The position numbers and the translations under genes were made by a program. Positions 3,454 to 61,616 of a stretch of DNA of 64,000 bases are shown here, piece by piece. This stretch comes from an uncultured Chloroflexia bacterium (GTDB lineage: Bacteria > Chloroflexota > Anaerolineae > Anaerolineales > E44-bin32), in NCBI GenBank assembly GCA_963777165.1, contig CAVZPO010000021.1, forward strand, positions 140,187-204,186, read 5' to 3'. The notes under the pieces are model-generated. The model was not told where the DNA came from and did not search any database. It saw only the letters and a list, made by a program, of their open reading frames with translations. How positions within the stretch are numbered: the stretch's first letter is position 1; every line of letters begins with the position of its first letter.

Positions 3454-5613
3454 TCACCACCGACCGCGATTGAGCCGGGCCTCCGGGCGGCGAAGTTCCT
3501 CCTCCCGGGCACCGACGATGCGCACCGCACAGGCCTTGTACTCCGGGATCTTGGCCAGTGGATCGAGGGCATCGATGGTCAGCAGATTGGCGGCCGCCTC
3601 GGCGAAGTGGAAGGCGATAAACACCACGCCGATTGTCGACTTCTGCGTGACGCGAGCCCGCAGGACCACCGAGCCGCGGCGCGATGAGGCACGTACAGCC
3701 TGTCCATCTGACAGCTTGAGGCGGGCGGCATCTGCCGGATGGATTTCCACGACCGCCTCCGGGTACAGGTCGTCCAACTTCGAGTTGCGGGTGAGCGTCC
3801 CGCCGTGCCAGTGCTCGAGCACGCGCCCGGTGGTCAGGATCAGTGGGTACTCTTCATCCGGCATTTCGACCGTCGGCCGATACTCCAGAGGAAAGAACTT
3901 CGCCCGTCCGCTTGGAAAAGTGTCGGCGAAAAGGAAAGGCGTGCCCGGATGATTCTCGTCCCACACCGGAGTCTGCAGACCCTCGCCCTCGAGCCGGGAG
4001 TAGCGCACGCCGGCGTACTCGGGGACCAGCCGGCCCATTTCCTCCAGCACCTCGGACGGTCCGGCGTACGTCCAGCCAGCGGTCGGCGTGCCGAGGCGCT
4101 GCTCGATGCGCAGCGCCAGGTCGCACAGGATTTCCGAGTCCGGGCGCGATTGGCCGCGCGGCGGCATGGCCCTGCGAACGCGCTGCACCCGCCGATCGGT
4201 GTTGGTGAAGGTTCCTTCCTTCTCGGCCCACGAGGCGGCCGGCAGGAACACGTCGGCATAGGCGCCCAATTCATTCAGGAACAGGTCCTGCGCCACCAGG
4301 AACTCCAACTGCTCCATCTGCTGACGGGTGTGGTTGAGATTGGGCTCGGACATCATCGGGTTCTCGCCCATGATATACAGGGCGTGGACGCCTCCGGGGC
4401 CGACGGACGACATGATTTCGGTCGTCGTCAGGCCGAGGGCACGGTTCAGGCCCCCCGGCTCGATGTTCCACGCCGCCTCGAATTTGCGGGCCGCGGCGTC
4501 ATCGTCGACCCGCTGATAGCCGGGGTAGTGCCACGGCATCGCCCCTGCATCGGACGCACCCTGCACGTTGTTCTGCCCGCGCAGCGGGTTCAACCCGGTG
4601 CCGCGTCGCCCGATGTGCCCGGTGAGAAGCGCCAGATGGATCAGGCTCATGGCGTTATCGGTGCCGTGGGAGTGTTCCGGGATGCCCAGCGCCCAGTAGA
4701 TGGCGGCGTTGCGCGCGCCGGCGTACATCCGGGCGGCCTCCACGATCAGATCGCGCGACACGCCCGAGATCGCCTCGGCGTACTCGGGGGTGAAGGCCTC
4801 CATCGAGGCGGCGAAGACCTCGAAGCCCTCCGTCCGCGAGCTCACGAAGTCCTCGTTGTACAACTTCTCTTTGAGGATCACGTGCGCCATGGCCGAGAAG
4901 ACCGGCACGTCGGTGCCCGGCCGCTCCGGAAGCCATAGCGTCGCCCAGTTGACCATCTCAATCCGCCGCGGGTCGACGACGATCAGACGCGCGCCGTGCT
5001 TCTCGACGGCGGCCTTCATCTGCAGGGCGATGATCGGGTGAGTCTCGGACGTGTTCGAACCGGTGACGATGAACACGTCGTTGTCGGTCACTTCGGCGGC
5101 GGTGTTGCTCATCGCCGACGAGCCCAGCGCCATCTGTAGCGCCACGACCGAGCCAGCATGACACAAGCGCGTGCAGTGGTCGATATGGTTGGTGCGAAAC
5201 TGGGTGCGGAAGAGCTTCTGCAGCAGGTAGTTGTCTTCGTTCGTCGCCTTGGCGCAGCTGTAGGCTGCTAAGGCATGGTGACCGTCCGCCCGGTAGATCT
5301 GCGTGAGGCGGTCGGCGATCAGGTCGAGCGCTTCGTCCCAGGTTGCCTGGCGCCACTCGGAGCGATCGAAGGCCTGCGTGCGCCGGCCAGGCGCCTGTGG
5401 TGTTCGGCGCACGAGCGGGGTGGTCACGCGCTTCGGGTGGTAGACGAAGTCGTAGCCGAAGCGGCCCTTGACGCACAAGTTCCCATGATTGATGACGCTG
5501 TCGGGCGGAGACGAGACGCGATAGATGGCGTCGTCGCGCAGGTAGAGCTCGAGGTTGCACCCCACGCCGCAGTACGGACACACGGTGGTGACGATGCGAT
5601 CGGGACGAATCAC
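3454..5613 (-). CDS. fdhA: formate dehydrogenase catalytic (molybdopterin) subunit, cysteine type
   Basis: VCPYCGVGCNLELY is the 4Fe-4S motif. HCTRLCHAGS has Cys where FdhF has Sec. EKEGTFTNTDRRVQRV is the FdhF-like block. The start is placed at GTG 5613 (GGAG 5 nt upstream), because the longer ORF to 5799 overlaps the upstream gene. Confidence 0.85.
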   Translation of the reverse strand: MIRPDRIVTTVCPYCGVGCNLELYLRDDAIYRVSSPPDSVINHGNLCVKGRFGYDFVYHPKRVTTPLVRRTPQAPGRRTQAFDRSEWRQATWDEALDLIADRLTQIYRADGHHALAAYSCAKATNEDNYLLQKLFRTQFRTNHIDHCTRLCHAGSVVALQMALGSSAMSNTAAEVTDNDVFIVTGSNTSETHPIIALQMKAAVEKHGARLIVVDPRRIEMVNWATLWLPERPGTDVPVFSAMAHVILKEKLYNEDFVSSRTEGFEVFAASMEAFTPEYAEAISGVSRDLIVEAARMYAGARNAAIYWALGIPEHSHGTDNAMSLIHLALLTGHIGRRGTGLNPLRGQNNVQGASDAGAMPWHYPGYQRVDDDAAARKFEAAWNIEPGGLNRALGLTTTEIMSSVGPGGVHALYIMGENPMMSEPNLNHTRQQMEQLEFLVAQDLFLNELGAYADVFLPAASWAEKEGTFTNTDRRVQRVRRAMPPRGQSRPDSEILCDLALRIEQRLGTPTAGWTYAGPSEVLEEMGRLVPEYAGVRYSRLEGEGLQTPVWDENHPGTPFLFADTFPSGRAKFFPLEYRPTVEMPDEEYPLILTTGRVLEHWHGGTLTRNSKLDDLYPEAVVEIHPADAARLKLSDGQAVRASSRRGSVVLRARVTQKSTIGVVFIAFHFAEAAANLLTIDALDPLAKIPEYKACAVRIVGAREEELRRPEARLNRGRW

Positions 5614-5654
5614 ACCTACTCCAACTTTCTCCCCCCGGCCCGGTGGCCGGGGCG

Positions 5655-6356
5655 TTAGCTCTTGCGGCGCTTCTTCTTTTCCGAGAGCGTCGCCTGCAGC
5701 ATCGCCTCGGGAGACATGCCCTGCTCGAGGAGCCACTCGCGCCGGGGCTTGAGCGCCCCGCTCGGGCACACGTCGACACATTGACCACAGAAGACGCACG
5801 TAGTCTCAGGCATCGGCCGGTTGAGGAATGTCCCGATCTGTGTCGCGTGGCCGCGGCCGGTGAAGTCGAGCGCAAAGGTAAACTGCGCATCGTTGGCGCA
5901 CACCTGGACACAGCGCCAGCACAACACGCACTTGGCGTAATCGCGGATATACATCGGGTTGTCGTCGATCAGCTCCGGGCGCCGCCGCTCGCCGCCGTCG
6001 AATCTCTCCGGCCGGCAGGCGTAGGCTGTCATCAGCGCCTGAAGCTCCGGGGCTTCGGAAAGGTCGACGGAGAAGGCCAGCATTTCCAGCAGCGTGCGCC
6101 GCGCCCGCACGATCCGTTCGGACTCGGTGTGCACGCGCGCGCCGGCGCTCGCCGGCGTGACACACGACGCCACCAGCCCGCGCACGCCTTCGACTTCGAC
6201 GACGCACATCCGGCACAGGCCGTTGGCGGTCGTTCGGGGCGAATAGCACAGCACGGGGATGTTGATCCCCGCCTGTCGGGCCGCCTCCAGGAGCGTCGCC
6301 CCGGCTGCGATCTGCACCGCCCGGCCGTCGATCGTCAGCTCAATGCGATCGGTCAT
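5655..6356 (-). CDS. 2Fe-2S / 2x[4Fe-4S] ferredoxin-type electron-transfer subunit (NuoG/FdhA N-terminal module as a separate protein)
   Basis: [15 protein letters not shown]...[13 protein letters not shown] is the 2Fe-2S fold. [11 protein letters not shown] and [12 protein letters not shown] are ferredoxin motifs. Confidence 0.8.
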
Positions 6357-6430
6357 CGGCCTCCCGTTGATCTTTCACCGGGCCGCGCCAGCGCCTCGAA
6401 CTCATGACCGAAGGTTCCCGGGCATGGGTT

Positions 6431-8158
6431 TCAGCCTGCCTGCGGCTGGAACGCCGCAGGCCAGCGCCGTCGGGCGGAAAGGATGGCGGTGCTGGCGGTC
6501 ACGCCAAGTCCGCAGATCGACGTCTCGGTCATGGCGAAGGCGACGTCGTCCAGCGCCTCCAGGTCCCCCGGGTGCAGCCGGCCGTGCGCCAGCCGGTCGA
6601 CGATCTCGAGCTGCCGCTGGGTGCCGAGCTGGCAGGGGAAGCACTTGCCACACGACTCGTGGGCAAAGAAGCGCGCCAGGTGATAGCACGTCCGCCTGAG
6701 GTCGCGGCTGTGGTTCATGATCATGATCACACCCGAGCCCATCGGCAGCCCGGCCTGGCGGAAGCTGGCGTGCGTCAGGGACAGGTCGAGCGCCTCCGGT
6801 CCGGCGAAGGCACCGGCGGCGCCGCCCAGCAGGATCGCCTGCAGCTCGCCGCTCACGCCTCCCGCCAGATCGAGGAGCTCACCCAGCGTCGTCCCGAAGG
6901 GCACCTCGTAGGTGCCCGGCAGGGCGATATCGCCCGACAGACAGAACAGCTTGGTGCCCGGCGAATCCGGAACACCCACGGAACGGTGGTCTTCGACGCC
7001 GTGTCCGAGGATCCAGGCGGCCATGCACAGCGTCTCGACGTTGTTGATCGCCGTCGGCATCCCAAACAGGCCGTGGGTTACCGGGTACGGAGGTTTGAGG
7101 CGCGGCAGCCCGCGCTTTCCCTCGATCGATTCCAGCAGCGCGGTCTCTTCACCACAGATGTAAGCGCCGGCCCCGGAGCGCAGCTCGACGTCGAAGCTGA
7201 ATTCGCTGCCGAGCAGACGAGCCCCCAGGGTGCCGCCGTCGCGGGCCGCCTGAATCGCCTGGCGCAAGATGCGCTGCGCACGCGGGTATTCGCCGCGGAC
7301 GTACAGGTAGCCTTGCGAGGCGCCGATGGCGTAGCCGGCGAGCGTCATGCCCTCCAGCACCGCCAGAGGATCGCCCTCGAGAAGCACGCGGTCTTTGAAC
7401 GTCCCCGGCTCCGACTCATCGCCGTTGCACACGACGTAACGCTGCGGCGCCTCACCGGATGCCGCCAGCGCCCACTTGCGTCCCGTCGGGAACGCCGCCC
7501 CACCGCGCCCGTCCAATCCGGAGGCCTCGATCTCGTCGATGACCTTCTGCGGCGTCAGGCTGCTCAACGCACGCTTCAGACCCGTGTACCCCCCGCTCGC
7601 CGCATATGCCTGCACGTCGGTCGGATCGATGGCGCCGCAGCGCGCCGTCAGTCGGCGCGGCGCGCCGTGGATCTCACCCAGTCCGATCTCCTGCGGATCA
7701 CCGAGCCACTTCGCTACAGGAACACCATGCAGGTTTCCCACCGGCAGGCCGCCATGCAGCGCCGCCGGCGCGTGGTCGCACAGGCACAGGCAAGGGACTT
7801 CTTCGATCTCGAAGGCGCCATCCGCCGTCGGCTCCCCCGGATGCACCTTGAGGTGCTGGCAGAGTTCGCGCAGTACGGTTTCGCCCCCTGCCTGGGCACA
7901 GCGCGGGCTTGTGCATACGCGGATCACGGTCCGTCCCGTGGGACGATCGTAGAGCAGCGTGTAGAAGCTCACGACGCCGTGGATTTCGGCTTCGGAGACT
8001 CGAAGCGCCTGGCTGATGCTCGTTAGCACCGCGGGTTCCAGGTAGCCATATTGACGCTGGGCCTCGATCAGGGTCGGCAGCAACTGAGACCGGTCGCGGC
8101 TAGCCAGTTGCCCGAGCCACGCTTGGAGAGGCTGGAGGTCGATTTCAGAGGAGGTCAC
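6431..8158 (-). CDS. fused NuoE-like (2Fe-2S) + NuoF-like (FMN/NAD-binding, 4Fe-4S) diaphorase subunit
   Basis: NuoE block: VCTSPRC..(x)..CLCLCDHAP. NuoF blocks: GRGGAAFPTGRKW, CNGDESEPGTFKDR, ESCGKCFPCQLG. The start is uncertain (GTG 8158 or upstream, up to 8251). Confidence 0.85.
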   Translation of the reverse strand: MTSSEIDLQPLQAWLGQLASRDRSQLLPTLIEAQRQYGYLEPAVLTSISQALRVSEAEIHGVVSFYTLLYDRPTGRTVIRVCTSPRCAQAGGETVLRELCQHLKVHPGEPTADGAFEIEEVPCLCLCDHAPAALHGGLPVGNLHGVPVAKWLGDPQEIGLGEIHGAPRRLTARCGAIDPTDVQAYAASGGYTGLKRALSSLTPQKVIDEIEASGLDGRGGAAFPTGRKWALAASGEAPQRYVVCNGDESEPGTFKDRVLLEGDPLAVLEGMTLAGYAIGASQGYLYVRGEYPRAQRILRQAIQAARDGGTLGARLLGSEFSFDVELRSGAGAYICGEETALLESIEGKRGLPRLKPPYPVTHGLFGMPTAINNVETLCMAAWILGHGVEDHRSVGVPDSPGTKLFCLSGDIALPGTYEVPFGTTLGELLDLAGGVSGELQAILLGGAAGAFAGPEALDLSLTHASFRQAGLPMGSGVIMIMNHSRDLRRTCYHLARFFAHESCGKCFPCQLGTQRQLEIVDRLAHGRLHPGDLEALDDVAFAMTETSICGLGVTASTAILSARRRWPAAFQPQAG

Positions 8159-8376
8159 AGGATCCCGCCTCAAGATGGTACTTGATTCGAGCTCGTGATG
8201 CGGCTGCCGTTCGGGAGACGGGGCGCAAGCGCACCCCCTTTCAAGCCACAACCTATTTCCCGAGAATTTGTATCAGATAACTCCGCGTACCGCAATCCCG
8301 CCACACGTCCCGGCGCCATCGTGAGCGGCGGAGCAGACAGGGAGTGGCACACTCGCACGGCGCTCAGGCCTGCGGG

Positions 8377-9825
8377 TCACCCGATCGGCTCGACGTCATG
8401 CACGCCGGACTCGCTCATCCCTGCGCCGGTGACGCGCACGAACTCCGCCCGTTCCCAGAGCTCCCTCACCGTCTGCGCGCCGGCGTAGGACATCCCCGAG
8501 CGGATCCCGCCGATCAACTGCTCGAGGACTTCAGCCACGGCGCCGCGGTGCGGCACGACGGCCTCCACGCCTTCGGGAACGATCTGCTCCCAATCACCGG
8601 GTTCGAGATCGGCCCCACGCTCAATGATCAATCGGTCGGCATTGGCGGTGAGCGACGCCATGCCGCGAACGACCTTCATCTTGCGTCCGTCGCGGATCAC
8701 CGTCGCACCCGGAGCCTCGTCGGTCCCGGCCAGCATGCCCCCGATCATCACGCTGCTCGCACCGGCGGCCAGCGCTTTGATCGCATCGCCGGAGGTGCGG
8801 ATTCCACCGTCGGCGATCAGCGGCAGGTCCAACGCCTGCGCCTCCGCTGCGCATTCCAGGATCGCCGTGAGCTGCGGCACTCCGAATCCGGTGATCACCC
8901 GCGTGATACAGATCGAGCCCGAACCCACACCGACCTTTACCGCATCCACGCCGGCCTCGGCCAGATCGCGCACCCCCTCGGGTGTGGCGACGTTCCCGGC
9001 AATGATCGGCACCTCCGGCCAGCGCTCCTTCAGCCGCCGAACCATCCCCAGGCAGTTCTCCGAGTGCCCGTGGGCGATGTCGACCACGAAGAGGTCGGCG
9101 CCCGCCTGCAGGCAGGCCTCGGCCCGCTCGACGTCCTCGGCCCGCGCTCCGACGGCCGCTCCGACGCGCAGCCGGCCCTTGGCGTCTTTGGTCGCCTGCG
9201 GGTGCAGCTCGAGTTTCATGATGTCCTGCGCCGTGATCAGGCCGCGCAGCTTGCCCTGGTCATCCACCAGAGGCAGCTTCTCAAGCCGGTGGGCGTAGAG
9301 CTGTTCGCGGGCGGTCGCCAGATTGCCCGGCGCTTGCAGCGTGATCAGACGCTCGCGCGGCGTCATGACTTCACTCACCATCTCCTGCGCGTCCGGCGCG
9401 AAGAGCAGATCGCGCCGTGTGAGCATCCCCAGGACGCGCATCTCCCGGTCTACGACGACCAGCCCCCCGATCCCGGCGGCGGTCATCACCTCGCGCGCCT
9501 GGTTGATGGTGGCTTGAGGCTCGATCGTGATCGGGGCCTCGACGATGTAGCTCTCTGCCCGCTTGACCCGCGCCACGTCTCCGGCCTGGCGCTCGATCGG
9601 CATGAAGCGGTGGATGATCCCCAGACCGCCGCAGCGCGCCATGGCGACGGCCATTTCTGCTTCGGTCACCGTGTCCATGTTGGCGCTGATCACCGGGATG
9701 GCCAGCGGGATGCCTCGCGCCGCCAGGGTGTGCGGCGACACGTCGCCGCGGCTGACCAGCCGCGAGTGCCGCGGCACGAGCAGCACATCATCAAAGGTCA
9801 ATCCCTGCTCAGCCCGCATGCGCAT
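8377..9825 (-). CDS. guaB: IMP dehydrogenase
   Basis: 482 aa. [14 protein letters not shown]; tandem CBS region; active-site region [11 protein letters not shown]; GGIRTSGD. Confidence 0.95.
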
Positions 9826-12555: not shown

Positions 12556-13722
12556 ATGCGCCGACTGTTCCGCCAAGTGCTCGCTTCCCTGGCCCCCCGG
12601 GTGGATCCCGACGAGAAGCCCTACCGCGTCCAGCTGGGGCGGGCGGCCGTCCGGGTCTCCCTGGTGCTGCTCAGCTGCTGGCTGCTGATCGAAATCCTGA
12701 TCGTGCAGCTGCTGCGGCCCGAGTCCGACCATGCCTGGCGCTACGACCTAGTGGCGATCCTCGTCCTGGCGGCGGTCCTGGCGGTGGCCGAAGGGTTCGT
12801 GCGCAAGGGGCGCACGACGGTCGTCGGGTACCTGCTGGCGATCAGCTTCTTCCTGTACCCGCTGGTGAATGCGTTTATCGTCCCAGGGGACATCTACCTG
12901 GTCAACGTCGCCTTCCTGATCTCGATTGTCGCCGCCGGCGCTATGGTCGGCGGCGGCCCGGCCTACCTGTTTGCCGGACTGACGACGCTGGCCAACGTCG
13001 GGACCTGGCTCTACGCCAGCGGCCATCCCGTGGCGCTGGTCCATCCCTTCGACCCGACGACCGGGGCGATCTTCCTGCTGAGCAACACCCTCGTGGCCGT
13101 GGCCCTGGCCGCGGTGCTGAACTTCTACTCCAGCTACATGCGGCGCAGCATCTCGGCTCTGAACGTGCAGGCCGAGCAGATGACCGAGCTGGCGCATACC
13201 GATCCGATGACCGGGCTGGCCAACCGGCGCTGGCTGATGGAACAGCTCGGGCGTGAGTTCTCGCGCGCCCGGCGCTACCGGCGGCCGCTCAGTCTGCTCT
13301 ATCTCGACCTCGACGGGTTCAAGGCGATCAACGACCGCTTCGGCCACCTGTTCGGCGACGAGGTGCTCACCGGGGCCGGGCGGGCGATGAAGTCCGTGCT
13401 GCGCTCGACCGACTTGCTGGCGCGCATCGGCGGAGACGAGTTCGTCGTCCTGCTTCCTGAGACCGGGATCGAGGGCGCCCACAACGTAACCGCCAAACTG
13501 CGCAAGTCGCTCAACGCCTACGGCCAGCAGCTCGGCCCGGCGGTCCCGATGTTGTCGTTCTGCGCCGGCGTCAGCCAGCTCCATCCGGACAATTCCACGA
13601 TCGACGACATCCTGTCCCGCGCCGACGAAGCACAGTATCTGGCCAAGGGCACGGGCCCCGGGCACACCCGCTCCGAACGCGAACTCGTCGTCTCTCCGCC
13701 GCCTTCACCTTCGCCGGGGTAG
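12556..13722 (+). CDS. membrane-anchored diguanylate cyclase (GGDEF)
   Basis: About 190 aa of TM segments, then DPMTGLANRR...LDLDGFKAINDRFGHLFGDEVL...RIGGDEFVVLLPE. Confidence 0.85.
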   Translation: MRRLFRQVLASLAPRVDPDEKPYRVQLGRAAVRVSLVLLSCWLLIEILIVQLLRPESDHAWRYDLVAILVLAAVLAVAEGFVRKGRTTVVGYLLAISFFLYPLVNAFIVPGDIYLVNVAFLISIVAAGAMVGGGPAYLFAGLTTLANVGTWLYASGHPVALVHPFDPTTGAIFLLSNTLVAVALAAVLNFYSSYMRRSISALNVQAEQMTELAHTDPMTGLANRRWLMEQLGREFSRARRYRRPLSLLYLDLDGFKAINDRFGHLFGDEVLTGAGRAMKSVLRSTDLLARIGGDEFVVLLPETGIEGAHNVTAKLRKSLNAYGQQLGPAVPMLSFCAGVSQLHPDNSTIDDILSRADEAQYLAKGTGPGHTRSERELVVSPPPSPSPG

Positions 13723-16532: not shown

Positions 16533-16744
16533 CTCTGCCTCCTCATCGCCCCGCATCCCCTGATCGGGATTGCGAGCGGGCCCTCGGTGAGCACCACCAG
16601 GATTCTTTGGCTTGAGGATGGGCCTCCGGCCATCATGGGGCAAGTACAAATGGTCACACCCGACAGCGCAGAGACTCACCGGGTGGACAGACGTCTGCCC
16701 CCGGGCGGCGCGTGGTATGATTGCACGTCCTCGACCCGGACCCC

Positions 16745-18922
16745 ATGAACGCCGATCGCAACCTGTCCCTCACCCCGCCGAATGGTTTCAACCTGCCGCG
16801 CCGCCTGCGCCGGCTGGCCGACCTGGCCTATAACTTGTGGTGGACCTGGCATCCGGATTCGGCGCGCATCTTCCGCTATCTCGACGCCGAGGTCTGGGAG
16901 CGGACGGCACATAACCCGGTTCACTTTTTGCGCCAGGTACCGCCCGAGACGCTCCGCCGCGCCACCAACGATCGCGGTTTCCTCGACTTCCATGATCGCG
17001 TCCTGCGCGCATTCGACGAGTACATGGCCAAAGGAGCGGAGGCCTGGTACCCGCGCGTTCATCCCGATCGGATGAACCAGCCGATTGCCTATTTCTCCAC
17101 CGAGTTCGGACTGCATGAGTCGCTCCCGATCTATGCCGGCGGCCTGGGCGTACTCTCCGGGGATCATCTCAAGGAAGCCAGCGACCTCGGCCTGCCGCTG
17201 GTCGCCGTCGGCTTCCTGTATACCCAGGGATACTTCCGCCAGCGGCTGAATGACGACGGCTGGCAGGAAGCGCGCTACACCCCGCTGGCCTTCGCCGACC
17301 TGCCGGTCTACCCGGTGTTCGACGCGCTCGGCGAGATGCTGATGATCACCGTCGAGCTCCCGGGGCGGCCGGTACACGCCCGGCTGTGGCGCATCCAGGT
17401 CGGCCGCGTGCCGTTGTTTCTGATCGACAGCGACGTCGAGGCCAATCAGCCTGCCGACCGCAGCCTGACCGCCCGCCTGTACACCAGCGACCTGGAGATG
17501 CGCATCTCGCAGGAGATCCTGCTGGGGATCGGCGGCGTGCGGGCCTTGCGCGCGCTGGGCTACAACCCGGCCGTCTGGCACATGAATGAAGGCCACTCGG
17601 CCTTCCTTGCGCTCGAGCGGGCGCGCGAGTTGGTGGCCGCCGGGCGGACGTTCGCGCAGGCGTCCGAACGCGTTCGCGCCTCCAGCCTATTCACCACCCA
17701 CACCCCTGTCGCCGCCGGACACGACGAGTTCCCGCTGTGGCTGATGGAGAAATACTTCGGAAGCTTCTGGCCCCAGCTCGGACTTGACCGGGAGGTATTC
17801 CTCGATCTCGCCCGACACAAGGAAGCCTGGGGCGAGACTTTCAGCATGGCCATCCTGGCCATGCGCTCCGCCGACCGCGCCAACGGCGTCTCCGAACTGC
17901 ACGGCCAGGTCGCCCGCAAGATGTGGTCGTACCTGTGGCCGAGCCTGCCCGTCGAGCAGGTGCCGATCGGGCACATCACGAACGGGATTCATACCGGGAC
18001 ATGGCTGGCGCGTCGAATGTGGCTGCTCTTCGACCGCTACCTCGACCCCGGCTGGTACGACCGCCTGGACGACGCCGCGACCTGGGAGGCGATCGACCGC
18101 ATCCCGGACGAGGAGCTGTGGGCGGTGCGGCGGCACTTGAAACGCAAGCTGGCGGCTTACATGCGCGAGCGAGCCCGAGTGCAGTGGCACGAAGCGCGGG
18201 TCCATCCGGTCCAGATTATCGCCGCCGGTGTTCTGCTCGACCCGTACGCTCTGACGATCGGCTTTGCCCGCCGCTTCGCCACCTACAAACGCGCCAGCCT
18301 GATCTTGCACGATGTCGAGCGGCTGCTGGAGCTCGTCCATCGGCCGGGGATGCCGGTGCAGGTGATCTTCGCCGGCAAGGCGCATCCGGCCGATGAGCCC
18401 GGGAAGCTGCTGATCCAGGAGGTCTACCGCCAGGTGAAGCGCGCCGAGACTGGCGGGCGGTTGGTCTTCCTGGAGGACTACGACATCAACCTGGCGCGCT
18501 ATCTGGTGCAAGGCGTCGACCTGTGGCTGAACACGCCCCGGCGCCCTAACGAAGCCTCCGGCACCTCGGGCCAGAAGGCGGCGCTCAACGGCGCGTTGAA
18601 CCTATCGGCCCTCGACGGCTGGTGGCGGGAGGGCTTCAACGGACGCAACGGGTGGGCGATCGGGGACGAACGCGAGTACAGCGACCCGGCCGTGCAGGAC
18701 GCCGCCGACGCGGAGAGCCTGTACCATCTGCTCGAGGATGAGATCATCCCGCTCTACTACCTGGAACGATCGGCCGATCGGCTGCCGGGCGAGTGGCTCG
18801 GCCGCGTGAAGGAGTCGATCCGCACACTGGCCCCGCGCTTCAGCATGCGGCGCATGGTGCGCGAGTATGTGGAGGAGATGTATCTTCCGGCACTGCCCGA
18901 GCCGGAGCCGGCTCAGGTCTGA
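16745..18922 (+). CDS. glgP: alpha-glucan family phosphorylase (GT35)
   Basis: LADLAYNLWWTWHP; FSTEFGLHESLPIYAGGLGVLSGDHLK; FTTHTPVAAGHD; QVIFAGKAHPADEPGK; SGTSGQKAALNG. Confidence 0.85.
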   Translation: MNADRNLSLTPPNGFNLPRRLRRLADLAYNLWWTWHPDSARIFRYLDAEVWERTAHNPVHFLRQVPPETLRRATNDRGFLDFHDRVLRAFDEYMAKGAEAWYPRVHPDRMNQPIAYFSTEFGLHESLPIYAGGLGVLSGDHLKEASDLGLPLVAVGFLYTQGYFRQRLNDDGWQEARYTPLAFADLPVYPVFDALGEMLMITVELPGRPVHARLWRIQVGRVPLFLIDSDVEANQPADRSLTARLYTSDLEMRISQEILLGIGGVRALRALGYNPAVWHMNEGHSAFLALERARELVAAGRTFAQASERVRASSLFTTHTPVAAGHDEFPLWLMEKYFGSFWPQLGLDREVFLDLARHKEAWGETFSMAILAMRSADRANGVSELHGQVARKMWSYLWPSLPVEQVPIGHITNGIHTGTWLARRMWLLFDRYLDPGWYDRLDDAATWEAIDRIPDEELWAVRRHLKRKLAAYMRERARVQWHEARVHPVQIIAAGVLLDPYALTIGFARRFATYKRASLILHDVERLLELVHRPGMPVQVIFAGKAHPADEPGKLLIQEVYRQVKRAETGGRLVFLEDYDINLARYLVQGVDLWLNTPRRPNEASGTSGQKAALNGALNLSALDGWWREGFNGRNGWAIGDEREYSDPAVQDAADAESLYHLLEDEIIPLYYLERSADRLPGEWLGRVKESIRTLAPRFSMRRMVREYVEEMYLPALPEPEPAQV

Positions 18923-18925: not shown

Positions 18926-19453
18926 ATGCTCGATACCCTTGCGATCCCGGCCGCCCTTCTGCCCCTGGTGATTTTCGGCTTGCGCGTGTTCGATATGACC
19001 TTCGATACGCTGCGGGTCCTGCTCGTCATCCGCGGCCGCAAGGCGCTGGCCTGGACGCTCGGCTTCGCGCAGTCCGCCATCTGGGTCGTGGCCATCTCGA
19101 GCGTGCTGCGCCACGTCGACAACGTTTGGAACGTGGTCGGCTACGCCGGCGGGTTCGCCACCGGGACGGTAATCGGCATGCTGATCGAAGAGCGGCTGGC
19201 GATCGGGCACGGCCACGTGCGCGTCATCAGCCCACACCGCGGCAGCGCCCTGGCCGACGCGATCCGCGCCTCGGGCTACGCCGTGACCGAACTTGCAGCG
19301 CGCGGCAAGGATGGAACCGTCGCGGTGCTGACGTGCAGCGTGCGCCGCCGCGACATCTCCCGGGTGACGCGCCAGGCGCATGCCATCGACCCCGAGGCAT
19401 TCGTCACCGTCGAAGATGTCCGTCCCCTTCACCGCGGTTACTGGGGAGCCTGA
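18926..19453 (+). CDS. UPF0316 (DUF2179-containing) membrane protein, paralog 1
   Basis: Three TM segments (FGLRVFDMTFDTLRVLLVIRG) plus a C-terminal soluble domain (AVTELAARGKDGTVAVLTCSVRRRD...AFVTVEDV). Confidence 0.7.
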   Translation: MLDTLAIPAALLPLVIFGLRVFDMTFDTLRVLLVIRGRKALAWTLGFAQSAIWVVAISSVLRHVDNVWNVVGYAGGFATGTVIGMLIEERLAIGHGHVRVISPHRGSALADAIRASGYAVTELAARGKDGTVAVLTCSVRRRDISRVTRQAHAIDPEAFVTVEDVRPLHRGYWGA

Positions 19454-19456
19454 GGC

Positions 19457-20059
19457 GTGGCCGGCGTACCGATCCAGCCCCTCCTGGTCGTGGCGTTTGC
19501 CCTGGCGCTTGGCAAAGTCGTAGATCTGCCGGCTTTGCCGCTCCCTCCGGGGCTGCCGGCCTGGGCTCTGCCCGTCGGCATCTTCGTGCTCCTGGCGCTG
19601 AACACCGGGCTGGACACGCTGCGCATGCTGTCGGTGGCCCGCGGCCGGCGGGGCGCTGCCTGGCTGGCCGGGTTCACTCAGTCCGTCCTCTTTATCACGG
19701 CCATCGCCGGCCTGTTCAGCAATCTGGACAATCCATGGAATCTGGCAGCCTTAGCCGCGGGTTTCGCCAGCGGAAGCGTGCTCGGCATCCTGGCCGAAGC
19801 GCGCCTGGCGCCCGGACACCGGCTGGTGCGCATCGTCAGCTCCCGGCGCGGCGCGGCCATCGCCACCGCGCTCCGTCAGCGCGGCTGGGGCGCCACCGAA
19901 TTCGCCGCCCGCGGCCAGGACGGGATGGTGACGCTGATCTGGTGCCATGTCCCACGCCGCCAGGCTGGGTCGGTGACGGATGAGGCGCTCGACCTCGACC
20001 CTGAGGCCTTTGTCACCGCCGAGAGCGTCCGCCTGTTCCAGGGCGGATGGCGCGCCTGA
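19457..20059 (+). CDS. UPF0316 (DUF2179-containing) membrane protein, paralog 2
   Basis: Same architecture as the upstream gene (LNTGLDTLRMLSVARG...GATEFAARGQDGMVTLIWCHVPRRQ...AFVTAESV), 3 nt downstream of it. Confidence 0.7.
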   Translation: MAGVPIQPLLVVAFALALGKVVDLPALPLPPGLPAWALPVGIFVLLALNTGLDTLRMLSVARGRRGAAWLAGFTQSVLFITAIAGLFSNLDNPWNLAALAAGFASGSVLGILAEARLAPGHRLVRIVSSRRGAAIATALRQRGWGATEFAARGQDGMVTLIWCHVPRRQAGSVTDEALDLDPEAFVTAESVRLFQGGWRA

Positions 20060-20084: not shown

Positions 20085-20113
20085 TTGCGGTTCTCCCTCC
20101 GGCGACGTATAAT
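20085..20113 (+). promoter_or_regulatory. candidate sigma-70-type promoter
   Basis: TTGCGG (20085-20090), 17-nt spacer, TATAAT (20108-20113). It lies 45 nt upstream of the DUF4388 gene start. Confidence 0.4.
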
Positions 20114-20157
20114 CGCCAAACCCGGGCGGCGCCGCGCTCCGCCTGACCGAGGCCTGC

Positions 20158-20973
20158 ATGGCAGTCAAGGGCAATCTGCGTGACTTCAGTGTCACGCAAC
20201 TGCTCAATCTGATCAACCTGGCCCGCAAGACGGGGACGTTGACCGTCGAGGGGCCGAACGAAGCCGCCTGGGTCTCCTTCCAGGCCGGCAAGTTGATCTC
20301 TGCCCAGCTCGGCAACGAGGACGGGACGTTGGTCGGCATCCTGACCCGCTCGGGACGCATCACGGCCAAGCAGGCCCAGGTGATCAAGTCGCATGCCGGC
20401 GAGAAGTCCGACAAGGAGCTCGGCCTGCTGTTGATCAACGCCGGCTACCTGACGCAGCAGGACATCCTGGCCGGCATCCGCCAGTACATCATCGACATCG
20501 TCTACCGGCTGTTCACCTGGGTAGACGGCTTCTTCCGCTTCGACAATGATGTCCTGCCGCCCGACGACCGCATCGTCATGCGCCTCGACCTGGAAAACAT
20601 CATCATCGAGGGCGCGCGCCGGATGCGCGAATGGGAGCAGCTGCAGGAGGAACTTCCGAATCTGGACATGGCACTCGACTTCATCGAGCGCCCGGGGGCC
20701 AACATTCGCGACGTGAACTTGAACGTCGAAGAATGGAAGGTCGTCTCCTACATCAACCCAAAGAATTCCATCCGGCAGATCATGAAGGCCAACAAGATGA
20801 ACGAGCTCGAGATCCGCCGGATTGTTTACGGCCTGATCCAGGCGGGCCTGGTGGAAGTGGTGCGCCCGGTGGGCATGCCGCTCCCGCCGCAGGCCCGCCA
20901 GGTTCCGGTGGTCGACAAGCGTCAGCAAAGTTCGCTGGTCAATCGACTGATTGACCGCATCCGGTCGTTGTAG
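20158..20973 (+). CDS. DUF4388 domain protein
   Basis: The N-terminus GNLRDFSVTQLLNLINLARKTGTLTVEG....VSFQAGKLISA is the DUF4388 signature. The C-terminal half is helical. Confidence 0.7.
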   Translation: MAVKGNLRDFSVTQLLNLINLARKTGTLTVEGPNEAAWVSFQAGKLISAQLGNEDGTLVGILTRSGRITAKQAQVIKSHAGEKSDKELGLLLINAGYLTQQDILAGIRQYIIDIVYRLFTWVDGFFRFDNDVLPPDDRIVMRLDLENIIIEGARRMREWEQLQEELPNLDMALDFIERPGANIRDVNLNVEEWKVVSYINPKNSIRQIMKANKMNELEIRRIVYGLIQAGLVEVVRPVGMPLPPQARQVPVVDKRQQSSLVNRLIDRIRSL

Positions 20974-20985
20974 GCGAGGGCAGCC

Positions 20986-21519
20986 ATGCAAACCGTGAAG
21001 ATGGTCGTCACGGGTCCGTTCGCAGCCGGCAAGACCTCCTTCATCCGCTCGGTGAGTGAGATTGACGTCGTCTCGACCGAGCGTAAGATTTCCTCGGAGG
21101 CCGAGCGGATCAAGGAAACCACCACGGTGGCCATGGACTTCGGCCGGATCACCGTCGACGACGACCTGGTGCTCTACCTATTTGGCACACCGGGCCAGAA
21201 GCGGTTCGACTTCATGTGGGAAATCCTTTCGGAGGGGATGCTCGGCTTCATCGTCACCGTCGACAGCACGCGGCCGGAGACCTTCCGCGAGGCCAAGGGC
21301 ATTCTGCAGACCTTCCGCGCCTACGCCCCGACGCCGTACGTGGTGGCGGCCAACAAGCAGGACGTGAAGGACGCCTGGACGGTGGAGGACCTGCGCATCG
21401 CCCTGAAGCTCGATCCGGCGGTCAAGATGCTGCCGTGTGTCGCCAGCGATCGCGAGTCGGTCAAGAAGGTGCTGCTCGAGCTCCTATACAGCATCCTCGA
21501 GGAAATGGAAAAGAAGTAG
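20986..21519 (+). CDS. small Ras-like GTPase (COG2229 / conservon CvnD-type ATP/GTP-binding protein)
   Basis: G1 GPFAAGKTSF; G2 region TTTVAMDFG; G3 LFGTPGQKRF; G4 ANKQD. 177 aa. Confidence 0.8.
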   Translation: MQTVKMVVTGPFAAGKTSFIRSVSEIDVVSTERKISSEAERIKETTTVAMDFGRITVDDDLVLYLFGTPGQKRFDFMWEILSEGMLGFIVTVDSTRPETFREAKGILQTFRAYAPTPYVVAANKQDVKDAWTVEDLRIALKLDPAVKMLPCVASDRESVKKVLLELLYSILEEMEKK

Positions 21520-21544
21520 GCCGTTGGGCCGGCCCAGGGTTTCC

Positions 21545-22171
21545 GTGGCAAGCGAAGACGACCACTTCCTCCCCAACAAGATCGGGCGCATCCTGCTGCT
21601 ATCGCTCGAAGAGGTGGTCGGTCACAACGGCGTGAACGCTGCGCTGAACGTGGCCGGGCTGCCTGACCTGATCCACAGTTACCCGCCCAACACCCTCGAC
21701 CGCGAGTTCAGCTTCAGCGCCGTCGGGCGGATCCATCAGGCCCTCGACCGGTTGTACGGTACACGCGCCGGCCGCGGGCTGGCGCTGCGCACGGGACGTG
21801 CCGCTTTCAAGCACGCGCTGCGTGAATTCGGCCCGATGCTCGGGATGACCGAACTGCCCTTCCGCCTCCTCCCGCTGCCGATGAAGCTCAAGTCCGGGTT
21901 GGAAGGCACCGCCGAACTCCTCAACCGCTACACCGATCAGATCGTCCACCTCGAAGAAGGACCTGAGGCCTACCGCTTCCACCTGGACCTGTGCCCGCTG
22001 TGCTGGGGGCGCCGGCTCGACCAGCCTGGGTGCCACCTGGCCATCGGGTTCCTCCAGGAAGGGCTCTCCTGGATGAGCGGTGGGAAGAACTTCCTGGTCG
22101 AAGAGACCGATTGCGCTGCCCACGGCGGCGCCGCCTGCGTCCTACGCATCCTCCGCCAGCCTCTGGACTGA
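21545..22171 (+). CDS. V4R (4-vinyl reductase) domain protein
   Basis: The C-terminus CPLCWGR....PGCHLAIGFLQEGLSW.SG.....VEETDCAAHGGAACVLRI matches the V4R Cys pattern. The start is placed at GTG 21545, after the GTPase stop. Confidence 0.7.
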   Translation: MASEDDHFLPNKIGRILLLSLEEVVGHNGVNAALNVAGLPDLIHSYPPNTLDREFSFSAVGRIHQALDRLYGTRAGRGLALRTGRAAFKHALREFGPMLGMTELPFRLLPLPMKLKSGLEGTAELLNRYTDQIVHLEEGPEAYRFHLDLCPLCWGRRLDQPGCHLAIGFLQEGLSWMSGGKNFLVEETDCAAHGGAACVLRILRQPLD

Positions 22172-22301
22172 TCCGGGTGCAGGCGCGGCCGGCGGGCCTC
22201 GCCCATAGGTCATGGTTGCCCGCCCTCCGGCTTTACCGTAAGATTCTCTGGAGACACTACCTCCCCAGGCGAGCTCCGCCTCCTGTCGGCAACGGTGGAC
22301 G

Positions 22302-23189: not shown

Positions 23190-24956
23190 GTGAGCCTGTC
23201 GATCCCGGCCATCCTTGGTCTGCTGATGCTGGCCGCCCTCGCCGGCGGCATGGTGGCGTCGTGGGTCGGGCAACGGCGACGCCGGACGCGCCCGGCGGAT
23301 CAATCGGGCGGGCGCCGTGAGTCAATCCCTCAGACGGCGCTTGCGGAACTGAGCCGCAACCTGGCGGCCAGCGACGACCTGGATCAGATGATCGAACGCT
23401 CGCTGTCGATCCTGGCTCAAGCCACGGGCGCCGAGCGCGCCGCAGTCCAATTGGCGACTCCCGGCTCCGAACGCCTGCTTCACTGGGCGTCGCATGACGC
23501 CTCACAAGGAGCCCGACCGGTTGCTCGGCCGCTCTCGACCGAACGCAGCCACGGCCTGGCCGGATGGGTGATCGACCACCGCGAACCGGCGCTGATTCCG
23601 GACGTCAGCCGCGACCGACGCTGGATCCCGTTTTCCGGCACGGACGAAGACCACTACAGCGCCCTGGCCGTGCCACTGCTGGCAGGCACGCAAGCGCTGG
23701 GCGCGTGCCTGCTGCTCGGCCGTTCACCCAAGGTCTTCACGCCGGAGGACCGCGAGCTGGCGATGGCCGGCTCGGCGTTGATGGCCTTCGCCATCCGCCT
23801 GGCGGAGGCGCGCCGCAGCCTCCACGAAGCGGAGCGCAGGAGCGAAGACGCCGTTCGCCAACAGCAAGCCGACTTCCGGCGTGCACAGGCGATCCTCGAG
23901 TCGGTCGCTGATGGCGTCGTAGTCACCGGGCCGAGTCATCAGGTGGCCGTGTGCAATGCCGCCGCCGAACGCATCCTGTCGCTGCCCCGCGCCTCGGTGC
24001 TCGGTGAACCGGCCGCCCAGTTCATCGGGCTGTATGGCTCCGCCGGCCGACGTTGGGCCGAGGCGCTGCAGGCGTGGAGCCAGGACCCGGCCTCGGCCGC
24101 CGACCGTCCGACGCTCGCCGATCGCCTCGACCTGGAGGACGGCCGGGTCGTCGAAGTGCACGTGGCCCCCGTCGTCCTGGGCAACGACTTCCTGGGAACG
24201 GTGGCGGTCTTCCGCGACATCAGCCGTGACGTCGAGGTCGATCAGCTCAAGTCGGACTTCGTAGCCACCGTCAGCCACGAACTGCGGACTCCGATGACCT
24301 CGATCCGCGGCTACGTGCAGATGCTGCTGCTCGAGGCCGCCGGCCCGCTGACCGACGAGCAGCGCAAGTTTCTGGAGACCATCCGTTCCAACTCGGAACG
24401 GCTCGGGCGGCTGGTTAACGATCTGCTCGACCTGTCGCGCCTTGAGTCCGGCGCCGACGAACTGCACCTTCAGGCCGTCGCGCCGCTGCCCGTCCTGGAG
24501 GCCGGCCGCGATTACCTCGCCTCGCGCTGCGTGCAGGATTCCAAAGGCCTGCGCGTGGAGCTCGAGGCCTCGGGCTTGCTTCCAGAGGTGCGCGCCGACC
24601 CGCAGCGGCTGCAGCAGATCTTGCGCGGCCTGCTCGACAACAGCTTCAACTTCACGCCCGCCGGGGGATCGGTCTGGATCCGCGCTCAGTCTACCGGGGA
24701 CCGGCTGCGGATCGAAGTGGCGGACTCCGGGACCGGCATCCCGCTGGCTGAACAGCCGCGGGTCTTCGAGCGGTTCTTCCGCGGCGAGCAGGCCCTCAAT
24801 CTCGGTGTGCCGGGGACCGGCCTGGGGCTCTCGATCGTCGCCCACCTGGTGGAGCTGCACGGCGGGACAATCAAGCTTCAGAGCGAAGGGGTGTCCGGAC
24901 AGGGGACGCGGTTTTCGTTCGCCCTTCCGCTCTCTCCATCCTCGGCAGGAGGCTAG
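23190..24956 (+). CDS. sensor histidine kinase (TM-GAF-PAS-HisKA-HATPase)
   Basis: H-box FVATVSHELRTPMTSIRGY; N box LLDNSFNFT; G boxes DSGTGIP, GTGLGLSIV. Upstream there are GAF-like and PAS-like regions. Confidence 0.85.
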   Translation: MSLSIPAILGLLMLAALAGGMVASWVGQRRRRTRPADQSGGRRESIPQTALAELSRNLAASDDLDQMIERSLSILAQATGAERAAVQLATPGSERLLHWASHDASQGARPVARPLSTERSHGLAGWVIDHREPALIPDVSRDRRWIPFSGTDEDHYSALAVPLLAGTQALGACLLLGRSPKVFTPEDRELAMAGSALMAFAIRLAEARRSLHEAERRSEDAVRQQQADFRRAQAILESVADGVVVTGPSHQVAVCNAAAERILSLPRASVLGEPAAQFIGLYGSAGRRWAEALQAWSQDPASAADRPTLADRLDLEDGRVVEVHVAPVVLGNDFLGTVAVFRDISRDVEVDQLKSDFVATVSHELRTPMTSIRGYVQMLLLEAAGPLTDEQRKFLETIRSNSERLGRLVNDLLDLSRLESGADELHLQAVAPLPVLEAGRDYLASRCVQDSKGLRVELEASGLLPEVRADPQRLQQILRGLLDNSFNFTPAGGSVWIRAQSTGDRLRIEVADSGTGIPLAEQPRVFERFFRGEQALNLGVPGTGLGLSIVAHLVELHGGTIKLQSEGVSGQGTRFSFALPLSPSSAGG

Positions 24957-59314: not shown

Positions 59315-60226
59315 TTACTTCGCCGCCTCCTCCGGCCCGAGCAGGACGAACAGCCCGAGCGAACCCATGTTGGCAAATAGCAGCGGCGCCAGGAACGGCG
59401 CGCCGCGGATGAAACGCTCGCCGACGAAGACCCCCGCGGCGGTCAGGTCGTCGATCACGTGCAGCACCGCGCCGACGACGCCTACGGCGATCATCAACAC
59501 CATTGCCCCGGCGAAGATCGCCAGATCCGCCCGTCGGCGCCGCTCGGTCATCCCCATTCCGGCAGCGACGACCGTCCCGAACACCCCGGCGGCGGTTGGC
59601 AGCCACAGCCACGGGTTGACGAACCCGGTCCGCGCGTGATCGAGCACGCTGCTGATGACCGTCGCCAGGCTGCCCATGCCGACCATGAAGAAGTACGCCT
59701 GCGATTTGCTGTAGGGCAGCGCCAGCCTCCGGCGGCCGGTCAGGCTCAGTACGCCGCTATCGGGTGGATCTTCCACCCACGCGGCGCTGATGCCAAGCAG
59801 CCCGGTTAGCGAAAACGTCAAAGGACCGAGGATCGGGGGCGCCCACACCAGCAGATCGACCGAGACCTGCTCACCCGGCACCGCCTGGGGCAGCAAGGCG
59901 CGGCGCAGGTGGAAGTAGGCGCCCATCAGACCAACGACGATGCTGGCCCCCAGGACGACGGTGGCAATCGACGATGCCAGCGGCCGCCGGCGCAAGGCGA
60001 TCAGCCCGGCGATCAGCAGCAGGCCCCCGGCGACCGGGCCGAAGATGATCGGGATCCATTCGTAAGAGCGAATCGTCCCGCTGATGTTGTGCGCCAGGTA
60101 GGTATCGATTCCGAGGAACACTTCATTGACCGCTGCCATCAGCAGCATCATCTGGTCGCGCGTCAGCGGCAACCACCGACGCCTCAGCCCATCGAGTGGC
60201 AGGGAGAGCTCCGCCAGCAGCGTCAT
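59315..60226 (-). CDS. 8-TM membrane protein with internal duplication and four conserved His (candidate di-heme b / quinol-interacting partner)
   Basis: ATG 60226 overlaps the cytochrome stop (ATGA). Half 1 reads ..YLAHNISG..YEWIPIIFGPVAG...ALRRRP...GLMGAYFHLRRAL...APPILGPLTF. Half 2 reads ..VLDHARTG..WLWLPTAAGVFG...TERRRR...GVVGAVLHVIDDL...APFLAPLLF. Confidence 0.55.
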   Translation of the reverse strand: MTLLAELSLPLDGLRRRWLPLTRDQMMLLMAAVNEVFLGIDTYLAHNISGTIRSYEWIPIIFGPVAGGLLLIAGLIALRRRPLASSIATVVLGASIVVGLMGAYFHLRRALLPQAVPGEQVSVDLLVWAPPILGPLTFSLTGLLGISAAWVEDPPDSGVLSLTGRRRLALPYSKSQAYFFMVGMGSLATVISSVLDHARTGFVNPWLWLPTAAGVFGTVVAAGMGMTERRRRADLAIFAGAMVLMIAVGVVGAVLHVIDDLTAAGVFVGERFIRGAPFLAPLLFANMGSLGLFVLLGPEEAAK

Positions 60227-61518: not shown

Positions 61519-61616
61519 CCCACCCTCCGTGGTTCCAAAGTCCCTGCCAAGGGTCAAGGATCCATGTCTTATATAGCACAATCGTTCAGCGGAGCACAAT
61601 AACCTGCGTCAGTCCC

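Follow-up and report, generated by a model that had tools for sequence, protein, structure and literature searches.

What governs a bacterial Ras-like GTPase whose gene lies between those of a PATAN (DUF4388/PatA_N) protein and a stand-alone V4R protein, with no Roadblock or DUF742 gene beside it? The question is raised by a 64,000-nucleotide stretch of DNA from an uncultured Chloroflexota bacterium (hereafter the window; G+C content 63-69%), in which an earlier interpretation made from the letters alone (the sequence-only reading) had recognized three tightly spaced genes on one strand, coding for a DUF4388 protein, a 177-aa GTPase and a V4R protein, and had described them as a conservon-like module. 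The three genes are borne out by open reading frames (ORFs), Pfam matches and structure; they are separated by gaps of 12 and 25 nt and are followed by genes for a response regulator, here termed RRx, a histidine kinase and a second response regulator (Table 1). Based on the evidence set out below we propose, with a probability of about 0.55, that these genes define an MglA-family (Group-5-type) GTPase switch module of Anaerolineae, which is furnished with a sensory arm composed of the V4R and two-component proteins. The known part of this system is the association of a Group 5 MglA with PATAN, while the conserved V4R/phosphorelay arm and a parallel pairing of V4R with Roadblock genes are apparently new.

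The GTPase, PATAN and V4R proteins

The GTPase matches the Pfam profiles ATP_bind_1 (E=5.5e-20), Ras (E=2.4e-10) and Arf, and its sequence matches in the PDB include MglA, Ypt1 and an Asgard Arf. The complete set of G1-G4 motifs noted in the sequence-only reading is intact, namely GPFAAGKT (residues 10-17), TTT (45-47), GTPGQ (67-71) and NKQD (123-126), and both TTT and GTPGQ are invariant in 71 orthologs, across which 47% of all positions are invariant. With identities of about 80-91% across Anaerolineae it is the most conserved protein of the set, the corresponding values being 48-76% for PATAN (in related loci outside the window's own clade), 49-64% for V4R and 44-58% for RRx. In a survey of the MglA family (Wuichet & Sogaard-Andersen 2014, PMC4316618), Groups 2-5 were found to have GTPGQ in G3 and a Thr that replaces the Group 1 arginine finger beside the G2 Thr. 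The canonical NKxD G4 ([NT]KxD) is retained in Groups 1, 4 and 5 of that survey, whereas Groups 2 and 3 depart from it, with NxFD and no Lys, and the conservon Group 2 combines NxFD with a DAR G5. Because it unites GTPGQ, TTT and NKQD, the window GTPase appears to fit Group 5 and fails to show the conservon motifs, and the label "conservon-like" has to be given up. Table S2 of the survey describes the 179-aa ANT_06780 of Anaerolinea thermophila as "MglA Group 5, <MglA<PATAN".

The product of the first gene matches PF14332 with E=1.8e-28 (99.4 bits, the cut-off being 25; residues 4-160 align to profile positions 1-122). Its AlphaFold2 (AF2) model, with a predicted local distance difference test (pLDDT) score of 81, displays a β-α-β-β-β core, a four-helix insertion at residues 58-118, a further β-α unit, a winged helix at residues 172-235 and, C-terminal to the latter, a disordered tail with a terminal helix. 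The winged helix matches that of RPC39 with a Foldseek probability of 1.0, and apart from it nothing significant was recovered when the model was compared with the PDB. The best matches of the model were NPRL2 and NPRL3 of GATOR1, at E=0.03-0.05 and with poor template-modelling (TM) scores; as these values are not significant we treat them as a lead only. GATOR1, built of longin and winged-helix domains, is a GTPase-activating protein (GAP) for Rag GTPases. The candidate identity of PATAN as a cryptic Roadblock or longin domain was rejected: Pfam searches at E<=10, with both the full protein and a core from which the insertion had been deleted, returned only DUF4388, hhalign against four Roadblock sequences gave a probability of 0.1%, and in the PDB Foldseek recovered no longin or roadblock structure with a significant match. 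Together with the lack of any Roadblock or DUF742 match in Pfam, the same hhalign value upholds the earlier view that the proteins flanking the GTPase are not homologs of these families.

The pairing of PATAN with the GTPase in Chloroflexi had already been catalogued in 2014 and is not new, since Table S2 of the above survey (PMC4316618) lists PATAN>MglA pairs for ANT_06780, Caur_0665 of Chloroflexus and Rcas_1730 of Roseiflexus, and for Herpetosiphon too; Cagg_2798, RoseRS_2140 and Haur_0845 are further MglA genes of Chloroflexi adjacent to PATAN. These pairs resemble the window genes in their taxonomic range, the PATAN-then-GTPase order, the absence of an adjacent MglB, a GTPase length of 176-179 aa, and the presence of GTPGQ, the G2 Thr and NKxD. 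The same table records MglB>PATAN>MglA triads in Aquificae, Cyanobacteria, Deinococcus-Thermus and some Chloroflexi, including Roseiflexus (PMC4316618). Because such triads hold both PATAN and Roadblock, PATAN is an additional partner that coexists with Roadblock and no substitute for it. The triads in many phyla, and the Roadblock genes present in the gene strings of 4 of 80 related loci (see below), thus contradict the notion that DUF4388 occupies the Roadblock position. For the PATAN domain of Synechocystis PixE a role as output domain has been reported, with experimentally observed binding to PilB1 and PilC (bioRxiv 10.1101/2021.06.11.447907).

In the case of the third gene, the true start is the GTG at 21545, in agreement with public gene calls; a longer ORF, from 21437, runs into the GTPase gene. 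The V4R score of the resulting protein, 30.4-30.9 bits, lies slightly below the Pfam cut-off of 31, and most of its listed homologs have a precomputed PF02830 match. The AF2 model (pLDDT 93) predicts a fold of the two-layer type, helical with a 4-stranded sheet, for which Foldseek recovered the V4R sensor domains of MopR and PoxR, TRAPPC3/Bet3 and H-NOX, all with a probability of 1.0; the matches to H-NOX domains had E values of about 1e-6 and TM scores of 0.65-0.73. A profile of the protein weakly matches PoxR, MopR and MJ1460. The predicted structure thereby secures the V4R assignment despite the sub-threshold Pfam score. Six residues are invariant in 18 orthologs (C150, C153, C163, E187, C190 and C198), and the spacing E187-x2-C190-x7-C198 is that of the aligned PoxR sequence, whose Glu and Cys residues we take to be Zn ligands. 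This suggests that V4R carries a putative Zn site of the PoxR/MopR type (Cys ... Glu-x2-Cys-x7-Cys); binding of Zn by PoxR through cysteines has been reported. The hallmark of H-NOX proteins is the proximal haem-ligating His, and since no His is invariant in the 18 orthologs a haem-binding H-NOX was ruled out.

A profile search of 1.84 billion representatives recovered 378 clusters of this V4R family at E<=1e-30, nearly all of them stand-alone proteins of about 210 aa. The exceptional fusions comprise TIR-V4R (P0440, P0410 and P0447), Ser/Thr kinase-TIR-V4R (P0475) and CHAT-FHA-V4R (P0461, encoded at L095 8001-10160) architectures. Architectures of this kind are typical of signalling or conflict systems in multicellular bacteria, and the fusions indicate that the family is used as a sensor module. 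Fusions of a GTPase to V4R were not found among the 150 best V4R representatives. A ligand-sensing role for V4R, as put forward in the sequence-only reading, is plausible to the extent that the predicted fold and the Zn-site pattern speak for it. An identity as a defence system was dropped, because the PADLOC defence-system models yielded no match for PATAN, the GTPase or V4R. A 2013 review stated that prokaryotic V4R proteins have "no clear function" (PMC3791482), and the proposed V4R ancestry of the TRAPP subunit Bet3 is an argument from fold alone.

A conserved operon in Anaerolineae

We compared the gene neighbourhoods of V4R relatives using one genome per GTDB species, concentrating on the best 80 loci among 336 species with such a relative (individual loci are cited by L numbers). 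At least these 80 best loci all belong to Anaerolineae-type Chloroflexota. The GTPase gene lies 5' of the V4R gene on the same strand in 75 of the 76 loci that have more than 1 kb of upstream DNA, a PATAN gene is present in 68 of the 80, and RRx is found downstream in 68. The usual form, seen in about 56 loci, is a string of seven genes that code for PATAN, the GTPase, an alpha/beta-hydrolase, V4R, a hexapeptide (LbH) transferase, an NAD-dependent acyl-thioester reductase and RRx, with median gaps, in this order, of 28, 31, -4, 39, 6.5 and 27.5 nt, so that start and stop codons overlap within the operon (a typical example is L065 6210-10064). Even a distant V4R representative (E about 1e-46) was again encountered in the order PATAN-GTPase-hydrolase-V4R-LbH-RRx. 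In A. thermolimosa the genes GAP05454-05458 read DUF4388-GTPase-MhpC-[gap]-GlmU-like. The genes that flank the block vary among loci and lineages while the block itself stays, which argues for selection on the block. In the 2014 survey the neighbourhoods of Group 5 MglA genes were called "widely variable" and orphan MglA members, with no MglB nearby, were recognized within the family (Wuichet & Sogaard-Andersen 2014, PMC4316618); here, in contrast, we find a fixed multi-gene operon across 75 species-level genomes. The Group 5 catalogue is confined to PATAN, MglA and MglB; neither V4R nor the three enzymes nor the REC-GGDEF-like regulator appear in it.

Among these enzymes the hydrolase is of the Abhydrolase_1 family, the transferase is a 423-aa Hexapep/LbH protein whose N-terminal half is unassigned, and the reductase is homologous both to cyanobacterial acyl-ACP (acyl carrier protein) reductase and to the N-terminal part of PigE, the prodigiosin aminotransferase. 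Taken together, the three enzymes suggest that a fatty aldehyde or something akin to a lipid is made. A tblastn search across the 64-kb window found none of the three. The triad of the window is a reduced version of the seven-gene operon, from which the window lineage has lost the three enzymes. The expectation that the triad co-occurs in a kept order thus holds for the gene order, which is strongly conserved, but not for the triad as a unit in its own right. The window belongs with a compact clade of about 10 loci (L007-L009, L011, L023, L025, L027, L028, L037 and L067) that show the arrangement GlgP - DUF5698 x2 - PATAN - GTPase - V4R, and L041 and L084 likewise have no hydrolase gene. In the lineages without the hydrolase the V4R gene stands directly behind the GTPase gene, 25 nt away in the window.

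The synteny of the phosphorylase with the DUF5698 pair upstream is a marker of this compact clade. In the window the pair occupies 18926-20059, as two tandem paralogous DUF5698/DUF2179 membrane-protein genes that are about 47-49% identical, and a DUF3417-type glycogen phosphorylase gene lies 5' of it at 16721-18922. Near-identical contigs come from metagenome-assembled genomes labelled Chloroflexia or Chloroflexota, for example contig_10089 of MFD05942.bin.2.115, whose GTPase is 100% identical to that of the window and whose remaining cluster proteins are 95-99% identical. In contig_10089 (L001/L007; L001 5732-9985) each of the genes for the phosphorylase, DUF5698 and PATAN is broken up into two or three frames, with PATAN called at 193 aa; these breaks are probably assembly indels and not pseudogenes, because the short-read contigs L002-L005 keep the genes intact.

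The sequence-only reading had further noted that a two-component set follows directly. RRx, the kinase and the second regulator do follow the V4R gene in the window, the kinase gene starting 3 nt past RRx, but only RRx is widely conserved together with the module. All three genes follow the compact block in L007-L009 and L028 as they do in the window; full-length matches to the kinase were obtained in these close relatives of the window (L007-L009) and in L028, and the kinase with the second regulator was additionally seen in the detached variant L090. RRx matches Response_reg with E=3e-27 and GGDEF with E=6.5e-4, the latter under the cut-off, and the active-site motif of its GGDEF-like region reads WSGSF in the window, most orthologs having GGDNF, with no intact GG[DE]EF. 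A 388-aa protein with a GGDEF match of E=5e-41 is encoded 6.4 kb 5' of the operon (12556-13722, + strand) and could be relevant to the degenerate GGDEF of RRx. A detached unit in L090 (163-9242), L091 and L092 begins with a V4R variant that is extended at its N terminus by 150 aa, rich in Pro and Ala and containing Cys; the unit has the order V4R-LbH-RRx, a 1719-aa kinase with many GAF domains and a REC protein; upstream of this unit no PATAN or GTPase gene was found in L091 and L092.

The promoter that the sequence-only reading placed in front of the PATAN gene was located, with its -10 box conserved across relatives. Its -35 hexamer agrees with the consensus at 3 of 6 positions, which is the reason why it was missed by a consensus scan. 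The -10 box GTATAATC is kept in every diverged compact related locus, and 48 of 65 related loci have a perfect TATAAT 20-120 nt 5' of PATAN, as against a chance expectation of about 0.006 per locus. Since the -10 box is conserved and TATAAT is found far above chance, we regard this predicted element as a real promoter. A second element resides in the 130-nt spacer between V4R and RRx, where a block of the form 'GGTTGCC..CTTTACCGTAAGAT' is conserved amid otherwise diverged sequence and kept out to L028. This element, too, was absent from the output of the consensus promoter scan, and it probably serves the regulator-kinase-regulator genes as a promoter of their own. The 25-nt spacer between the GTPase and V4R genes contains a G+C-rich inverted repeat, GGCCGTTGGGCCGGCC (21517-21536), which the scan calls terminator-like on the minus strand only; a stem-loop formed by it may affect V4R translation or mRNA stability.

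Roadblock genes, proposed mechanism and alternatives

The statement that neither Roadblock nor DUF742 is present is true at the locus itself, but a Roadblock gene occurs in the gene string of 4 of the 80 related loci. The near-identical contig L001 has no gene annotated as Robl_LC7 or DUF742 within +/-10 kb, and profile hidden Markov models (HMMs) built from related Roadblock genes, which are narrow in being based on four sequences, matched nothing in the 64-kb window. Within four genes of the window GTPase no MglB/Roadblock gene was found, whereas L043 and L066 do have one, in the form of a 123-aa Roadblock-like gene between the GTPase and the hydrolase (Robl_LC7 E=1.4e-3), whose product cross-matches the HMM of the clear Roadblock proteins. 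The other two loci, L042 and L079, have a clear Robl_LC7 gene (E=5.7e-18) five genes 5' of the GTPase in the same string, which reads Roadblock - V4R' - RRx' - family-2 glycosyltransferase - PATAN - GTPase - hydrolase - V4R and onward. In A. thermophila an orphan MglB is found elsewhere in the genome (Wuichet & Sogaard-Andersen 2014, PMC4316618).

The paralog V4R' (paralog B) of these strings is not confined to them, since about one third of the best 150 V4R representatives are closer to it than to the window V4R. Four members of paralog B were sampled for their neighbourhoods: three immediately follow a Robl_LC7 gene (in L093/L094, L099 and L098, the gap being 8 nt in L093, L094 and L099), and the fourth adjoins Ser/Thr kinases instead. 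The V4R subfamily thus appears, from gene context, to be linked twice and independently to parts of MglA/MglB-type switches. The coordinates of the Roadblock-V4R pairs are 8615-9633 in both L093 and L094, 287-1296 in L099, 1-929 in L098, 1988-3005 in L042 and 1885-2898 in L079, and the pair is often followed by a family-2 glycosyltransferase gene.

Comparison with known systems brings out both the affinities and the peculiarities of this module. With the Group 1 MglA/MglB systems of Myxococcus xanthus and Thermus thermophilus it shares an MglA-family Ras-like GTPase with a Thr replacing Asp in G3, partners of the response-regulator type and, in the operons of some relatives, a Roadblock GAP; it differs in that the GTPase has TTT in place of the intrinsic Arg finger and GTPGQ in place of TVPGQ, and in that the window shows neither an adjacent MglB nor a motility context. 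The Streptomyces conservon (CvnA-D) and mycobacterial Mfp systems of Group 2 also combine a small MglA-family GTPase with histidine-kinase-type signalling genes, and the Anaerolineae GTPases, which match ATP_bind_1, bear the generic NCBI name "ATP/GTP-binding protein", an annotation also given to CvnD proteins. The window, however, has no CvnB (Roadblock) or CvnC (DUF742) counterpart, its G4 is NKQD and not NxFD, its kinase is of the GAF-PAS type with a cognate REC protein as opposed to CvnA, which is of the HAMP type and carries an LPxR motif at its C terminus, and it includes response regulators, which conservons do not.

The V4R protein is reminiscent of stand-alone H-NOX sensors and of the V4R phenol sensors MopR and PoxR in its predicted fold (TM 0.55-0.73, probability 1.0) and in its Cys/Glu pattern like that of the PoxR/MopR Zn site, and, as with the stand-alone H-NOX genes found beside kinases or diguanylate cyclases, the gene for a pocket protein here adjoins those for a REC-GGDEF-like protein and a kinase. 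Unlike these sensors it has no invariant His and no fusion to an AAA+ activator, and it is co-operonic with a GTPase. The TRAPP core, in which Bet3-family and longin proteins form the guanine nucleotide exchange factor (GEF) for Rab1/Ypt1, offers a parallel in that a Bet3/V4R-fold gene is tied to a Ras-like GTPase, and its paralogs to Roadblock; the partner fold is nevertheless Roadblock or PATAN, not longin, and the tie is one of gene context. In Asgard archaea the GTPase genes generally lie outside operons with roadblock, longin and TRAPPC3 genes (Tran et al. 2024), whereas the Anaerolineae GTPase and V4R share one operon. Gene neighbourhoods that unite V4R with a GTPase or with Roadblock were not encountered in the searchable literature.

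From the domain identities, folds, motifs, operon and promoter conservation and Roadblock links described above, we infer the binding partners, ligand and cellular output of the module as follows. The GTPase would act as a nucleotide-dependent switch, and the PATAN-winged-helix protein would most likely be its effector or localisation adaptor, directed at machinery associated with the membrane, for instance pili, the division apparatus or a polarity system. The sensory arm would consist of the stand-alone V4R and RRx, to which the window lineage adds the GAF-PAS kinase and the CheY-like regulator. V4R is envisaged as a Zn-stabilised pocket protein that probably binds a small hydrophobic ligand and would relay this information to RRx and/or the GTPase cycle; in most relatives and in the ancestral operon the ligand may come from the co-operonic hydrolase, acyltransferase and acyl-thioester reductase. 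GTP hydrolysis would probably be stimulated by an unlinked Roadblock/MglB protein rather than by PATAN or V4R.

Several observations weigh against this proposal. No GAP or GEF for the GTPase was identified in the 64-kb stretch. The cellular output of the Group-5 MglA-PATAN system is a guess, since we found no experimental characterisation of Group-5 MglA GTPases and their PATAN partners in the literature. A Pfam survey of the gene content of the window revealed no pilus or motility genes, and cultured Anaerolineae are described as non-motile. Part of the conservation of gene order may have come about through inheritance rather than selection, since all loci examined are from one class of Chloroflexota. 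The V4R arm also exists without PATAN and the GTPase, as in the V4R-LbH-RRx-kinase-response regulator units of L090-L092 and in L070, which lacks both despite 7 kb of upstream flank; this implies that V4R may signal chiefly to RRx rather than to the GTPase. Finally, the conserved promoter-like element between V4R and RRx suggests that the RRx-kinase-regulator genes may be partly independent.

The restriction of the 80 best loci to one class, the detached units together with L070, the promoter-like element 5' of RRx and the silence of the published PATAN>MglA catalogue on V4R would also fit an adjacency devoid of functional meaning, in which a PATAN-MglA switch and a separate V4R/LbH/reductase/RRx unit of a small-molecule or lipid pathway were juxtaposed by descent. 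Such a history does not readily account for a block that stays constant while both its flanks change, for a V4R gene that remains right behind the GTPase gene where the hydrolase has been lost, or for the overlapping start and stop codons within the operon. Moreover, paralogous V4R genes are independently paired with Roadblock/MglB-like genes, in L042 and L079 even in the same string as PATAN and the GTPase, and two independent links of V4R to MglA/MglB-type parts make a chance juxtaposition unlikely; we consider this explanation unlikely overall. In the model advanced by the sequence-only reading, PATAN and V4R stand in for Roadblock (CvnB/MglB) and DUF742 (CvnC) as GAP, GEF or scaffold of a conservon-like GTPase, with V4R sensing for the GTPase directly. 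The absence of Roadblock and DUF742 within +/-10 kb and of Roadblock from the window, the tight and conserved coupling of the three genes, and the non-significant similarity of PATAN to NPRL2/NPRL3 of GATOR1 (E=0.03-0.05) are compatible with it. However, the G4 motif is NKQD and not NxFD, Aquificae, Cyanobacteria, Deinococcus and Roseiflexus commonly have MglB>PATAN>MglA triads, Anaerolinea has its orphan MglB and 4 of 80 relatives a Roadblock gene in the same string, the profile similarity between PATAN and Roadblock is nil, and the V4R arm is found without the GTPase, all of which render this model quite improbable.

A further possibility draws on eukaryotic complexes, with V4R dimers of the Bet3 fold and Roadblock and/or PATAN forming a multisubunit GEF or GAP for the MglA-type GTPase, in the manner of TRAPP or Ragulator. 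It would be in keeping with the match of the V4R model to TRAPPC3/Bet3 at a probability of 1.0, the co-operonic small GTPase and the paralogous V4R genes directly after Roadblock genes. Yet V4R matches H-NOX and the MopR/PoxR sensors at least as well as Bet3, the fusions of its family to TIR, kinase and CHAT modules resemble those of a generic sensor, GTPase-V4R fusions number 0 among the 150 best representatives, neither longin nor roadblock domains are significantly similar to the PATAN model, and the argument draws on gene context and fold; we hold it to be very unlikely. The related conjecture that the Anaerolineae V4R is a physical partner of MglA/MglB-type switches, its dimer making up with Roadblock and/or PATAN a ligand-gated GEF/GAP platform, is a rather doubtful one. 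If true, a Bet3-like protein of bacteria would regulate a Ras-like GTPase, a task that in eukaryotes falls to the TRAPP core.

The Group-5-type switch with a V4R and two-component arm is hence the reading we prefer. It describes a fixed set of genes in which a protein of the Bet3/V4R fold is encoded together with a Ras-like GTPase, a PATAN adaptor and a phosphorelay, and in some loci with a Roadblock protein as well; because these genes share one operon, a regulation of the GTPase by V4R would be directly testable. Should V4R act on the GTPase cycle, this would establish the first functional connection of the Bet3 fold to a small GTPase outside eukaryotes; should it feed the response regulator only, the operon would still exemplify MglA-type switches wired to small-molecule sensing in filamentous Chloroflexota.

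Feature coordinates and other genes of the window

Table 1. Positions of the operon genes and promoter-like elements in the window, with the evidence for each assignment
Feature	Positions	Strand	Evidence
Promoter-like element TTGCGG-17-TATAAT, 5' of the PATAN gene	20085..20113	+	Sequence read
PATAN (DUF4388/PatA_N) protein, 271 aa	20158..20973	+	Pfam PF14332; AF2 model
MglA-family (Group-5-type) small GTPase, 177 aa	20986..21519	+	Pfam, motifs, PDB sequence matches
Stand-alone V4R/Bet3/H-NOX-fold protein, 208 aa, GTG start, putative Zn site	21545..22171	+	Pfam, AF2, Foldseek
Second promoter-like element TTGCCC-17-TAAGAT, in the 130-nt V4R-RRx spacer	22216..22244	+	Conserved block
Response regulator RRx, REC + degenerate GGDEF-like, 294 aa	22302..23186	+	Pfam
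Histidine kinase: N-terminal hydrophobic segment, GAF, PAS, HisKA, HATPase_c	23190..24956	+	Pfam
Single-domain CheY-like response regulator, 126 aa	24966..25346	+	Pfam Response_reg 1.6e-29

Beyond the operon and its immediate surroundings, the minus strand of the window codes for a formate-dehydrogenase-like molybdopterin oxidoreductase that adjoins a NuoF/NuoE-like flavoprotein fusion (3454-8251), and for a multihaem cytochrome near the other end of the stretch (60223-61599). The minus strand also encodes a full-length bacterial serpin (46835-48133; Pfam Serpin E=1e-114), whose N terminus has a signal like that of lipoproteins.

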